From sequence record NZ_CP110904.1: a stretch of DNA of 64,000 bases. The stretch is one strand, 5' to 3'. A program made the position numbers. This DNA is from a plasmid. Below are positions 1-6,000 of the stretch, piece by piece; positions within the stretch are counted from its first letter, which is position 1; the number at the start of each line of letters is the position of its first letter.

Positions 1-3000
1 TCATCATGGAAATCCCAAATCCCAAATCCCGTGCCAGTGCGTAATCCAAGAAGTAAAACGTAACCCATTGATTTATATGTCAAAGCAAGTTTAAAATGTC
101 ACCTCTTTGTGCAAGATAGAAAGGGCACTTTCAGCCTATGTAATCATATTAATGTGACTGCTGCGTTATCCCACTCAACCAATTAATAAAGCAAAAGTTA
201 AATATGAAAGACTGGAATAAAAATATAACGAAAACATCTTAATATGGAAATATCTGTGTCAACGGGATCTTTAGTTATTGAATATCTGGTTCTAAATAGG
301 TTCTACATTCAACGGGAAGGGAAACCAAATATCTATATGTTTTTTATAAATACCATTACGTGGCAAACAACAATCTGCATATTTTTTTAAAGAATCTCCA
401 CATGGACAAATATTTTCTGGCGATAATACTCCATCATGTTCTTTCGCCTTAAATCTCCAGGTCGTAATATTGAAAATTTGATGTGGGGATTGTATGTATT
501 TGACAACACTAATTAAAGTTGAATAGTTATAATGATCACCATCATTGGAGAAAAAAACACTACATTTGTTAACGGGATTACTAACTATGTCATAAGTAAT
601 TAATTCAAAATCGATCACTTCATCAAAGCAAAGAACTCCATTATAAAGTTTATTTTTAACATGACCACAATCATTAATAAAACTACGGGTTGTATTACAT
701 ACTGAACATTTCACTTCTTTTATTATTTCACGAGAACTACCGAAGATTTTATATGGGAATAACGCCTGCCAATTACATACCATTCTCGCTAAGAAGTTAA
801 CACCATAGAAATTAACCTCAGGCAGAAACTCATTATTTTCTTTAATATGTATTAAATCTATTTCTATCCTTTCAAGTTCTACCCATGCTTCATAAAAATC
901 ACCTCTTGTAAGTAAATTAATGACTTGAATATATTTTAAATGGGCTAGTAAAATTGTTTTGTATAAAAACAATCTGTTTGATTCATTATTCAAGCTCAAG
1001 GATTGAGCTTTTTTTAACTCAGCATTAAGATAATCAAGAATAGCACTATCTTCTTGAGTAATACACATCCAACGCTTTAACTTTTCGTGAATATTCATAA
1101 TATCTATATAGATTTTTATTTGATTTTGTTAATTACTTTTAAAACATCGTCTACTTTTCCAGAAACAGTGTATTTCACATGTTTTCCTGATTTATTTTTT
1201 TTAATTATAGAGACTTTAACGTCTATATCTCTAGTTCCAAAGTTATCAATTTTTTTCTGAATATAATTTGAAACAAGATTTACTAAAAAAGGTATCATTA
1301 CTGATGTGGCAAAGAAAGTGCCTAACGCTAACGTTATACTGTTTAATTGCAGGTACGAAACACCATTAGAATCTCCGTACACTTTAACATTAGAATGTGA
1401 TTGCTTGGTGAACTGGAAAAAATCCAGTGCATTACCTCCAGTAATTTTTGAACTATCAAAAACGATCGCAATCTCATCATCTTGAGGTTCATATGAAGAA
1501 ATGATTTTTACCTCTTCATCTTCATCACTCATTTCACTCAAAGTAATGGGGTTCATTCTCAACTCCTTGTTTTATATTTTTACATTCAAATTTTACTATA
1601 CGACTGGTTAATTGCTCCTGTCCAACACACACCAGAGTTCATATGCTTAGCATACAAGGGACCAATGCCAGTAGCGACAGGCTAGTGTGTCAAAAAACCA
1701 CATGAAGATCAATCTCCTGCGGAAAATTTGGCCGCAATTAGTTTCATTGTCCTTTCCATGCCTTGATAAACTGTCGCATCTGTAATGTTTAACCTTGCGA
1801 GTTCCTTAAGTATTCTAGCTTTGTTTCTGATCACTATTTTTTCTACTTTAAACTCTTGCATAGCATCATCAGGGTTTGAAACTAAATCGGGATAAACAGC
1901 ATTATTCCCAAATAATAAGAATGCACCTGACTGTGATGACATCCTTTCATTATTATTTCTTCCTTTAACGAAAATTAACCTTTCCAAATCTGATGGTATA
2001 ATTACATCTTTAAAATAAGGTTTTTCATCTTTAATGTAATGTATGAGTTTTTGACAAGCTTCAGTTTTATTGAAAGCCTCCTTGTCCATTTTACAATCCA
2101 GCTGATCTTTCAGTGTTTGACTTAGCATTGATATATTTGATATGCAACTTACTGTATCAGAGTCAAAGAATTTTATACGATCCCTTTTTGTTTTGAAAAT
2201 AATAACATGTCCATCAACCTCATTTGTATTTTCATTATTACTAATGTCGCAACAAGCGAAATACAGAGCGATTAGTGGATTTGATGTTATATCCAACAAA
2301 CGAGTTGGTAGTCCGTAGTGTTGCATCCTTACTAACTTGTCTAGCATTGTTTTATCATCAACAAACTCAGTTGGCCTTGCTGTTAGGGCTTCACGGACTA
2401 AATTTGATTCACTGTGCAAATGCTTGAAGTTACCTTTTTTGTTTTTCCTGAAAACTGATGGAGCCAACTCGTAAGATACATCAGAATGTCCACGATAAAA
2501 TATTTCTGCATCTTCTTCATGATCTTGTTCTAAAACACGCGCCATGAAACTTTGAACATTATCTATTATTGGGTAGTTATCAACTTCATCAGGAAGTGCT
2601 TCAGTAGGAGGAAGTGGTGTACTTCTTGTCGTTATATTTAGAAGTGCTAATGTTTGATTTAAATCACGTGCTTTTATTCCCCAGTGAGTCCGTTTCAGCC
2701 CATATGCACCTAATTCTAAAGCTGTTTGATATAACTCTTTGTTTATCACTACGACATCATCTTGTGAGTGAGTGATTCTGAAATCAAACTCAACATTTTT
2801 GTTAACTGTTCGTAGATTTGAAATTACACCAAGTCGCAAAGTAATGTATTCAACATTGTCTCGGGAATAAAGTTCTGACATAAAAAGCGTAGGTAATTTC
2901 TCAATATAAGATAATGCTTTATCATTCAAAGGCGTTAACTTCAACCGGATGTCATCAGAGGTGCCTTCTAACATACGTGATATAGGAAAATCACAACTCC

Positions 3001-6000
3001 CACTAACCCGTTCATACATGGGCCAATGTTCAAAATAGTCAGGTTCTCCGCCCATAATTAGATTAAACATTAAAACTAAATCCTTATATTTTACTTAATG
3101 AATTATTTACAATCCAATCAATTGCGCCAGAGGTGCGAATCCAAGGCTTTATATTATGATTCACATAATAAATGGCTTCATCCATTCCACCTAACGTGAT
3201 ATATCCACTGTTAGACTTGATCTGTAATCTGCACTTCGATAACAAGCCGGGGATGTGTCTATTAGAATCAATCGCAGCTTTAGCGATATCATCGGCATCC
3301 GGGGATGACTGTCGGTAGGCGAGTAGGGCGCGTGTATACTGAAAAAACGAACGCATATCCCCAGGATAATCGTCCAGTAGCAAGGCCAGATCATCCACCA
3401 TTTCAAGCTCAAGGTAATAGTTCGCTAATAAATGACGAATCCCCTGGTTATCGTTCGGGTTGAGCTTCAGCATTTCGCGGCTATGAGCCATAGCCGGATA
3501 AAAATTACCAGACTCCCATAAGGCCTCAGCCAAAGCTGCTTTTGCTCTCATATATGGACGTGTTTCGACAAATCCCCAGAAACGTCCTGCGAACTCCTGA
3601 AAATCCTCGCCAAGTGCAATGCTGGCTGCGTACAAAGCAGTCTCCAGCTTCCCGATTTTTGACTCAGGAGGTTCTTGAGATATCTCGCAGTAGAATGAGT
3701 ATGCGTCAGCACAGAGCGGGGATTTCTTGATAGCTTTTCTGATGAGTTTCAGCACAACTTCCAGGTCATCATTTTCCCAGGCATCGAACATGAACTCCTG
3801 AGCCGCAACCAGATCTAGATGTAATTGCTCAGAGCTGACAGCAGTTTTATACAAATCAACGCGCTTTGTAGTCGGGAATTTAATCATCTCAAGTATCCTT
3901 TTGGGGACTCACTGTTCCGGTACTTTGCAGCACTGATGGTCGATTCTATCGCTTTGAACTTGCCACAAACAAGCTCGGGTCTGCCAGAACGGGATTGATA
4001 GCCCGGAGCTGTTCCTGGATGCGCACCTGAGCCTTACGGCTGGGCGATTTTTTGCTTCGTTCCCGTTTGCCTTCGCTTTCCCGCTCATCCTGTTTTACCT
4101 GAGCCAGTCGGAGTACAGTCCCGAGACGTTTGTTATCAACAATCTGCCCCTGGTCGACACAGGCCAGCTTATCAAATGCCTGGCACTTAAGGCTCCGGTG
4201 CCCATAGAGGAAGGCGAGGGTGCCATCGGGATAATCCAGTACTTTAATTTTTTCACCGGCAAGACGGCTATTTTCTTCTGTGGTGTCCATGAGATAAAGG
4301 ATCTTATCGTACTGGAAGGTCAGTGATTTCGACACGGTACGAACATCATGCCAGGCAAAGATGTCTCTTAATTCATCGGGGCTTTCCTGCACCGGACGAT
4401 GCAAATCTTTGGGGAACTTAGCCGGTCGTGAAAACCGGCTGTTAAAGTCAGCGATGAAAGTGGCAAGCCAGGCATTTGCGGCCTCAATGCCGGTTATACC
4501 TTCCAGACGCATTTCTTTGATCAGCCGATCCTGAAGTGTCTGATTCGCACGTTCCACGCGGCCTTTAGCTTCAGAGCTGTTGGCACAAATAAGCTCGATT
4601 GCCAGGTCATAAAGCACACGTCCGAACTGGGTAACGGTGGTATTGCGTTTCTCCGGACCACTGACGCGAAATATTGCGTGTTTGTCACTGTACAGCGATA
4701 CCGGCTTCCCATGCTGCTCGATGTATTCCCGGGTTGCCAGCATGTAGTCAAAGGCTGTTTCTGACTCGCTGAACCGCAAATGCATCAGACGCCCGGTGGC
4801 ATCATCGATAAAGACCAGCAGGCAGCATTTTGGCGCACGGCCTTCAAACCAGTCATGGTGGGAGCCGTCGATCTGGATAAGTTCACCCAGACAATCACGC
4901 CGATGTCGGGGTTGATAAACCCGTGACTTACGGCGAGCATGCGGGACCCAGAGTCCGTCAGACGTCATCCAGTTGCGGACGGTCTCGATTGAAAGCCGGA
5001 TATTATGGCGCTCTCTGAGTTTTTCTGCGGCCAGTGTGGGCCCAAAGTCACTGTAGTTTTCACGTATCAGCGTGAGTACTCGTAGTTTGAGAGATTCGGT
5101 CAACCGGCGGTTGCTGGGCTGGCCGCGTTTGCGGCTGACAAGTCCTTCAGCACCAGAAACTCGGTAACGATTGATAAGTCGTTGCGCCTGACGTTCTGAA
5201 ATGCCAAGCTGTGATGCTGCATCACGACGGCGTAGACGCTTTTCACAAACTGCCTGTATCACCGGTAGGCGGTGGATCTCTTTATCTGACATGGTCACCA
5301 ACATGCGTTGAGTCCCTTAGAATTGCATTCAGTTTAGCTTACTCTAAGGTGACGTTTCTATCTGGATAAAAAGTGACATTACTAAATGGTTCTAACATTA
5401 TAAGTGCGTATAACGTGGATTATGTTAACCCAAAAACGTTTAATTGTAATGGATAGTCGAGTTGGGTATACTTTCGGGAAGTACTTCAATTCATAATATA
5501 CCCATGACTGAACTCGTTGAAAGTAAGCTGTGCCGAAAATGCAAGACTCTGAAGAGCTTGTTAGACTTCGGAATTGACCGTAAAAGTAAGGATGGCCATA
5601 AGACTCGCTGCCGCCAGTGCGTAGCTGGCGAAAACCGGTTGTATAAATTGAATAACCGCAATGTAGTCAATGCAGCCAAGAACCGGTATCGTCAACGCCA
5701 TACCGCCGAAATGGCCGACTATATGCGTTTGTATCGTGCCAGGGTCCGTGGAAGCCAGCTGGCTGACCGCCACCGTCAGCACCTGGAGTTTCACAAAGAA
5801 GTGAATATTCAGCTTCAATTTAGGCTCGGAGCCATCATGGCCTCTCAGTTACTTCAGAATGACAAAACTATAGAGATTGAAAAGTTACTTTTAAAGTACC
5901 TTAAATCGCCTGAATCTGCTTCCGGAAGAAAGGCTCTTAATGAAGCTAGGGGAATCGCTTTCAGAGCGAAAATATCATATGAGGCGTTCAATACTCTTTT

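Follow-up and report, generated by a model that had tools for sequence, protein, structure and literature searches.

The stretch of DNA analyzed here, subsequently called the window, comprises 64,000 nucleotides of plasmid NZ_CP110904.1; close to its left end, positions 78-5397 are occupied by an insertion sequence (IS) of the IS1202 family that carries four genes in addition to its transposase. On balance, this region is probably to be understood as an IS1202-family unit inserted at a dif-like site, with a core that consists of a TPR protein gene and the transposase, and with two independent cargo modules of likely anti-phage function: a single gene for an FRG-domain protein, and a pair of small genes, C and D. 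The transposase and the four other genes belong to one element, and in evolutionary terms the four genes represent three units: TPR as a core gene, the single-gene FRG module (PDC-S15 in the PADLOC database), and the C-D pair. The principal features are listed below in window coordinates, with protein lengths in amino acids (aa).

73-77, no strand: left copy of the target-site duplication, TTATA; the same 5 bp recur at 5398-5402
78-5397: whole transposable unit of 5,320 bp, defined by its ends, its duplication and an empty site
78-132, plus strand: left terminal inverted repeat region, TGTCAAAGC...ATGTCAC...AGATAGAAA, retained on the left side in all cargo variants
142-3104, minus strand: variable cargo slot, GC content 0.33, holding D, C and FRG here and replaced in sister elements
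292-1098, minus strand: gene D, 268 aa; N-terminal helical bundle, beta-rich Zn-ribbon-like domain, and C-terminal SEC-C-like CPC..CC motif
1116-1556 (or 1562), minus strand: gene C, a single-pass membrane protein of 146 aa (or 148 aa), with AGGAG before the ATG at 1556
1595-1624, minus strand: promoter-like site TGGACA-18-TATAGT in the spacer between FRG and C, a 10/12 match from a consensus scan only
1709-3070, minus strand: FRG gene (B), 453 aa; predicted N-terminal domain of PUA-like fold (aa 1 to ~150) and predicted FRG module of ADP-ribosyltransferase (ART) fold (aa ~167-450)
3084-3887, minus strand: TPR/ST7-like gene (A), 267 aa; TPR_14 domain; core companion of the transposase
3946-5304, minus strand: IS1202-family (ISLad2-like, ISNCY) DDE transposase with helix-turn-helix (HTH) and rve domains; ratio of nonsynonymous to synonymous substitution rates (dN/dS) 0.05, GC content 0.525
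5343-5397, minus strand: right terminal inverted repeat region, ending in …TTCTAACA
5398-5402, no strand: right copy of the target-site duplication, TTATA
5403-5430, plus strand: dif-like Xer site, AGTGCGTATAA (XerC side), CGTGGA spacer, TTATGTTAACC (XerD side), directly after the right duplication

The transposable unit and its dif-like target

The left-end segment (~78-131) and the right-end segment (5320-5397) surround every variant of the element that was compared; each independent insertion has its own 5-bp duplication, and these duplications are spread over several cargo types; in addition, the sister plasmid NZ_OW969876.1 represents an empty site that contains TTATA once only. These end segments, individual duplications and the empty site together identify window positions 78-5397 as the unit; empty-site plasmids align to the window from ~5395-5403 on. 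The terminal repeats are imperfect: when the right end is reverse-complemented, 17 of its 26 outermost bases agree with the left end, and both ends contain the ATGTCAC and AGATAGAAA boxes. An initial reading made from the sequence alone had placed the gene cluster immediately next to an insertion sequence; it lies instead inside the transposable unit. A smaller IS of ~3105-5397, consisting of the TPR and transposase genes only, was rejected since the left-end segment and the duplications are found outside the cargo in every variant; an inverted-repeat search restricted to 3000-5500 did not reach the left end at 78, and so the true ends escaped it. The duplications of the individual insertions, with the sister loci designated by L numbers, are:

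Window: TTATA, shared by L081 and L087
L083, E. coli chromosome: ATATT
L084: GCATT
L085: AAATC
L004, Xenorhabdus: ATGAT
L005: ACATC

The transposase matches HTH_32, HTH_29 and, weakly, rve in Pfam; it is named 'ISNCY-like element ISLad2 family transposase' in RefSeq, and it has a length of 452 aa, compared to 448-452 aa for ISLad2 and ISKpn65. Its family assignment combines these Pfam domains, RefSeq annotation and length, and follows the placement of ISLad2, ISKpn21 and ISKpn65 in the IS1202 family (PMC10132070). Target-site duplications in this family are 3-5 bp long, the insertion point is located 5 bp away from dif or pdif sites on their XerC side, and sizes range from 1.3 to 2.5 kb; among the members there are 'transporter ISs' (tIS) with one extra open reading frame (ORF) for which no function is reported (PMC10132070). 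The window unit is an ISLad2-like IS1202-family member of this transporter type and, with 5,320 bp, the TPR gene and three cargo genes, a larger transporter-IS variant. It resembles the ISAjo2 group (ISLad2, tISKpn21, tISKpn65, tISRel10; Hall laboratory, PMC10132070) in its imperfect ends of ~26 bp that start with TGT, its 5-bp duplication, the insertion 5 bp from the XerC side, and the existence of transporter members with an extra ORF; it differs by its size and its four passenger ORFs, whereas the listed members of the ISAjo2 group have at most one extra ORF in the size range given above, and no defence cargo is reported for them.

The dif-like site at 5403-5430 fits the target pattern published for the IS1202 family (PMC10132070, Table 8), and it is likely that this site directed the insertion. 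In the chromosome of E. coli 0H25 (NZ_CP081690.1), the 5,320-bp element at L083 12013-17332 is located 5 bp from AGTGCGCATAA-TGTATA-TTATGTTAAAT, beside hipBA/hipA; from its sequence, this target reads like the E. coli chromosomal dif site. A blast comparison of this E. coli copy with the window finds ~68-5428 in common; this wider boundary was rejected as an over-extension of the alignment into similar dif-flanking sequence. In E. coli genomes, 24 chromosomal places were recorded altogether, and the heat-resistant AW1.7 is among the strains concerned; flanks were examined for one copy, the one at L083. A copy of the region with 100% identity is carried by IncHI1B plasmid pCF_324-2 of Citrobacter freundii, and the region was found in 455 plasmid records as well as in 41 genomes of E. 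coli.

Related elements accumulate at the same targets. In L087, a tISKpn21 element with a DUF6904 ORF (7500-9815) lies between the FRG element and the dif-like site and repeats the TTATA duplication. The IncHI2A plasmids L086 (6296-9876) and L108 carry an ISKpn21-like element with a CATGT duplication that contains a type I CBASS system (cyclase, 5.3e-150; S_4TM, 1.4e-145); this CBASS element, the TPR-transposase element and a third IS1202-like left end are arranged in tandem. The tandem CBASS element and the tISKpn21 insertion in L087 indicate that related elements stack at a single Xer site by serial insertion.

A variable cargo slot and three evolutionary units

Homology between the window and the sister plasmid L081, which has the same backbone, stops at position 141 and restarts at 3105; the intervening slot holds different genes in different elements. 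In a diverged lineage (L087, L005) it contains FRG, C and D at ~90% identity; in L081 and L084 it is occupied by a pair of TIR and Macro proteins that constitute a type II Thoeris system (ThsB_TIR, 4e-26, PADLOC 7.9e-74; ThsA_Macro, 1.8e-61, PADLOC 1.5e-122). In L086 and L108 the slot holds a pair of 437-aa and 231-aa proteins with weak AbiD/Abi matches, and in L085 it is reduced to fragments with a weak HEPN_Apea match, broken by an IS5 element. The slot of the Xenorhabdus beddingii element (L004) contains FRG together with an unrelated 335-aa ORF on the opposite strand (9441-10448), and no C-D pair; the 335-aa ORF has no Pfam, PHROG or PADLOC match. The PADLOC scan found neither ThsA nor ThsB in the window itself.

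Two observations concern the surroundings of these sister elements. In L108, an AbiJ/Abi_C family gene (1693-2511) lies just outside the left end of the element with Abi-like cargo, and adds to a defence-rich neighborhood. The L005 contig is labeled as a metagenome-assembled genome (MAG) of Veillonella sp.; its FRG protein is 93% identical to that of the window, and its element is of enterobacterial type. The Veillonella label is probably a MAG binning error.

The four genes A to D are indeed co-directional and tightly packed on the minus strand, as the sequence-only reading had described them; the gaps are 13 bp between TPR and FRG, 146-152 bp between FRG and C, and 17 bp between C and D. Compared to the ~90%-identical copies, dN/dS values of the four genes are 0.08-0.30, all below 1; with the transposase included, the range of 0.05-0.30 indicates real genes under purifying selection. 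The same reading had regarded all four genes as one strongly AT-rich cluster; this holds for the D, C and FRG genes (GC content 0.30-0.35) and not for the TPR gene (0.445), which is near the window mean of 0.467. Thus, base composition already sets the TPR gene apart from the other three.

The TPR-like nature of protein A was also predicted correctly: its match to TPR_14 in Pfam (8.4e-6, 26.4 bits) exceeds the cutoff of 23.5, and its relatives match ST7 as well. The TPR and transposase genes occur together in 461 plasmids, with any cargo; FRG, C and D accompany them at a coverage of at least 80% in 203 of these plasmids, and ~218 are without FRG, C and D. Since the TPR gene stays with the transposase whatever the cargo may be, it is part of the element core and is not specific to one cargo; its final seven codons fall in cargo-side sequence, past the break relative to L081. 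An obligatory role of the TPR gene in IS1202 elements was considered and rejected, as relatives are also found in a Tn3-type context, in an integrative and conjugative element (ICE), and in an island. In the Sphingomonadales loci L101-L104, a 43%-identical TPR/ST7-like homolog is located between a Tn3-family transposase and a resolvase, which indicates that the TPR family associates with more than one kind of transposon.

Full-length FRG relatives of ~450 aa are widespread in Proteobacteria. ORF clustering at 79 species-representative FRG loci found no neighboring gene family common to more than seven loci; by tblastn at the same loci, A, C and D were found only beside FRG copies that are 93-100% identical. 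FRG behaves as a stand-alone gene with no obligatory partner. A homolog of C (143-165 aa) lies directly upstream of D in nine of nine other contexts, with spacings that range from an overlap to 12 bp, and neither FRG nor TPR is present in any of the nine:

1: Proteus P2-like prophage, between CI repressor and integrase
2: Pseudomonas rustica island, beside an HNH-like PDC-M68A-type protein
3: plasmid, beside a KAP NTPase
4: metagenomic island with SIR2 (4.4e-54), HerA (7.5e-163), Mrr, HsdR (type I restriction-modification, R-M) and Septu PtuB (5.9e-67)
5: AlpA/H-NS island
6: a further contig
7: IncFII plasmid
8: Pseudoalteromonas
9: Acinetobacter baumannii, beside a DRT-like reverse transcriptase (5.9e-41)

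The A. baumannii record L113 (NZ_CP077849.1) is listed as a 'plasmid' of 3.66 Mb, but is evidently a replicon of chromosomal size; no genes are listed in the 10.7-kb stretch that surrounds the match.

This distribution bears on the proposal, also made from the sequence alone, that the four genes form one defence system, in which TPR would be the scaffold or the sensor, FRG would supply the enzyme, and C and D would be the membrane effector and the regulator, respectively. The co-directional, tight packing with only 13 bp between TPR and FRG, and the persistence of the block at ~90% identity in L005 and L087, are compatible with such a system; yet the TPR gene remains with the transposase when the cargo is type II Thoeris, Abi-like or other, and differs from the cargo in GC content; FRG homologs lack a conserved neighbor across the 79 loci; the Xenorhabdus element has FRG without C-D; and C-D occurs in nine contexts without FRG or TPR. 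A single four-component system is therefore highly improbable and largely refuted by the distribution data: the four-gene order is not conserved elsewhere, and it is the C-D pair that has been conserved. Treating FRG and C-D as separate cargo modules, as proposed at the outset, the following section considers each in turn.

The FRG protein and the C-D pair as cargo modules

The FRG domain expected in the 453-aa protein was recovered by Pfam (PF08867) at aa 189-279 (6.5e-22, 78.7 bits versus a cutoff of 25). Fourteen PADLOC PDC-S15 models match this protein; the best, PDLC04936 (1.7e-99), covers aa 167-450 with profile positions 22-297 of 300. What had appeared to be a C-terminal extension without recognizable motifs is part of the conserved FRG-family module, since the PDC-S15 hidden Markov model extends across aa 167-450. 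The prophage/phage family phrog_4962 matches the FRG protein over its full length (1e-106). R193, H195, Y200, Q250, H251, R257, D260 and Q380 are invariant; the module has a putative ART fold, and ART-fold relatives include RES, ParT and MbcT. The PDC systems are 145 candidates that were recognized by their position within loci of the BREX, DISARM and type I R-M systems (Payne et al. bioRxiv 10.1101/2024.01.29.577857). A literature search found no experiments on FRG and no function for PDC-S15.

The N-terminal domain has a putative PUA-like fold. Searched by itself against 1.84 billion representative sequences, it was found in 73 clusters, 29 of which were scanned for partner domains. TIR domains are the partner in 6 of the 29 (five of CAP12 type, best 1.3e-36, which match PDC-S35, and one TIR_2); FRG is the partner in three (by Pfam FRG) to five (by best PADLOC PDC-S15 models), SLFN_AlbA_2 in one, and Abi_C in one. 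R32, E66 and an RTHW motif at 127-130, among others, are invariant across the proteins with this domain. When a single N-terminal domain is joined to interchangeable NADase or Abi effectors, this usually points to an immune protein of the sensor-effector type; the architecture suggests that the FRG protein is a sensor-effector protein as well. The putative PUA-like domain may sense a nucleic-acid or nucleotide cue of infection; it would then control the FRG module of predicted ART fold, which may consume NAD+ or ADP-ribosylate a target, so that the infection would be aborted.

A non-immune function of the FRG protein, as a Tpt1/KptA-like enzyme of nucleic-acid modification or repair, or as an interbacterial toxin, appears quite improbable: the protein has no conserved secretion or immunity partner, its PADLOC match is to a candidate recognized within BREX, DISARM and R-M loci, its N-terminal domain is swapped among TIR, Abi_C and Schlafen effectors, and the IS slot in which it lies is occupied by Thoeris in other elements.

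Protein C contains a single hydrophobic segment (aa 74-92, mean Kyte-Doolittle hydropathy 1.99), flanked by an N-terminus with a net charge of -9 and a C-terminus of +8, in agreement with the single transmembrane segment and the acidic and basic tails noted previously; the aligned homologs share 34-40% identity with C and have kept the membrane segment. Protein D is under purifying selection (dN/dS 0.16-0.17) and was modeled by AlphaFold2 with a pLDDT of 83.6. Two cysteine clusters, C131/C134/C144/H146/C157 and CPC-x9-CC at 231-244, are invariant; the metal-binding SEC-C motif reads CPC-x8-C-[CH]. The SEC-C motif and second cysteine cluster that had been attributed to D are borne out in that both clusters are invariant, the motif is visible, and RefSeq and GenBank name the protein 'SecC motif-containing protein'; the attribution was not reproduced by Pfam, which has no match for C or D and did not score SEC-C (PF02810) on D at E<=0.1. 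Homologs of D are rare, with 16 clusters among 5.8 billion proteins, and occur in 210 plasmids. PDB sequence searches with FRG, C and D gave no match, and NCBIfam gave no informative match for window proteins. The AGGAG motif ahead of C and the promoter-like site at 1595-1624 are consistent with a transcription unit of its own for C-D; the site is a candidate for a separate promoter, weakly indicated by its sequence.

Together with the conserved gene order, these observations define C-D as a separate, rare and undescribed two-gene module that is often found among defence genes. The presumably zinc-binding, SEC-C-like D would be the cytosolic sensor or adaptor of this module, and the single-pass membrane protein C may act as effector, by membrane damage or by blocking entry. 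The suggestion that the cluster represents an undescribed system could apply to C-D; the FRG part had already been catalogued as PDC-S15. For the broader suggestion of an acquired, defence-type locus, support comes from the context: the PDC-S15 match, the type II Thoeris system in the same slot, and the presence of C-D both in defence islands and within the lysogeny operon of a prophage.

The Proteus prophage leads to another, rather unlikely interpretation of C-D: it could exclude superinfecting phage or incoming conjugative DNA by blocking entry at the inner membrane, and not act through abortive infection. A position between CI repressor and integrase in a P2 prophage implies expression in lysogens, and this is where C-D is located in the Proteus P2-like prophage; moreover, C is a single-pass membrane protein, and D has no recognizable enzymatic domain. 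On the other hand, the searches detected no relationship to known Sie or Imm proteins, most C-D copies reside on plasmids or islands and not in prophages, and the phage collection contained no copies.

Cargo modules on mobile elements could also act in addiction or stabilization of the IS or the plasmid, for example with toxin C neutralized by D, and with FRG as a self-restrained NAD+ toxin. The location of the genes in a mobile element and within large plasmids that are conjugative, the small two-gene operon structure of C-D with its membrane protein, the toxins of toxin-antitoxin systems among the ART-fold relatives (RES, ParT, MbcT), and a GNAT/DUF1778 toxin-antitoxin pair that adjoins sister elements would agree with addiction. 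This role is nevertheless improbable as well: the equivalent slot holds bona fide defence systems (type II Thoeris, and CBASS in the related element), C-D is known from the lysogeny operon of a prophage and from defence islands, the FRG N-terminal domain is common to TIR, Schlafen and Abi_C single-gene candidates, and FRG has no antitoxin-like partner. C-D also lacks homology to known toxin-antitoxin families.

As a caveat, several points weigh against two anti-phage modules on an IS1202 core. The defence role of FRG and C-D, and every biochemical step outlined for them, are deduced from context and sequence, and PDC-S15 itself is a single-gene phage defence candidate that its authors list explicitly as untested (Payne et al. 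bioRxiv 10.1101/2024.01.29.577857). The N-terminal domain of FRG is PUA-like without sequence support, as nine sequences gave no Pfam match even at E=10. No significant or informative structural relative was found for D, and no D homolog was present in the 50,697 phage records searched. Recognizable defence neighbors accompany C-D in only ~5 of the nine contexts, a proportion with no background rate for comparison. Finally, the occurrence of TPR relatives away from IS1202 transposases loosens the connection of this gene to the IS1202 core.

Relation to known systems and significance

Both the FRG module and PDC-S15 cover aa 167-450 and represent a stand-alone gene; they differ in that the PDC-S15 models omit the N-terminal 166 aa. 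Single-protein NADases of the TIR and SIR2 type that mediate abortive infection, and PDC-S35, likewise combine a sensor with an NAD+-related effector, and the same N-terminal domain is attached to CAP12-type TIR in PDC-S35-like proteins; the effector in the window, however, is FRG, with its predicted ART fold. Modification-dependent restriction readers (EVE, YTH, ASCH, SRA or McrB-N linked to nucleases) share no sequence similarity with the FRG N-terminal domain, and its partner is of predicted ART fold and not a nuclease. The type II Thoeris and type I CBASS systems of sister elements are found in the same slot (Thoeris) or in an equivalent place within a tandem ISKpn21-like element (CBASS); they use NAD+/ADP-ribose or nucleotide signaling and membrane effectors, are absent from the window, and are not homologous to FRG, C or D. 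The SEC-C motif is the sole recognizable feature of Rugutis, a validated single-gene antiphage protein of lactococci (PMC11381338), which in this respect sets a precedent at the level of function; by description, this motif is N-terminal in Rugutis and C-terminal in D, and Rugutis is encoded by a single gene (359 aa) without a membrane partner.

At the level of the element, there is a resemblance to Tn7-like transposons, which reportedly carry defence cargo: both are site-specific transposons with variable defence genes. The window element differs by its single DDE transposase, its dif-like target and its much smaller scale.

The IS family, its targeting of dif, and FRG as a defence candidate were already known. 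Three things are apparently new: an IS1202 element of this size that stacks at Xer sites and has an interchangeable defence slot; the pair formed by C and D; and the N-terminal domain with its modular use. A literature search did not find IS1202 or tIS elements with defence cargo.

Outside the right end of the element, the plasmid backbone contains a 546-aa ORF (6133-7773, plus strand; GC content ~0.33) that is also present in the sister plasmid; it has no Pfam match, and its PADLOC match to LmuA is weak only (0.0049). A search of window positions 1-6000 against Rfam found no RNA family.

A more far-reaching interpretation is offered tentatively, as conceivable but somewhat short of probable. 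The dif-targeting transporter ISs of the IS1202 family might be dedicated shuttles for anti-phage systems (type II Thoeris, CBASS, FRG/PDC-S15, Abi-like), whose stacking at a single Xer site would give rise to small defence islands, on plasmids as well as near the terminus of the chromosome; C-D might then be an undescribed defence system, and the RTHW N-terminal domain of FRG might represent a new family of infection sensors that extends across FRG, TIR, Schlafen and Abi_C proteins.

The window element connects an IS family that targets Xer sites with the way in which immune genes spread, both between clinical plasmids of the IncHI and IncF types and into the dif region of the E. coli chromosome, and suggests a simple route by which defence islands may be built and exchanged. 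It also provides two testable candidates: a rare module of a membrane protein and a zinc protein, and a sensor domain without a family that is common to four effector types. The FRG protein, in turn, offers a route to the first biochemical activity for the FRG domain.

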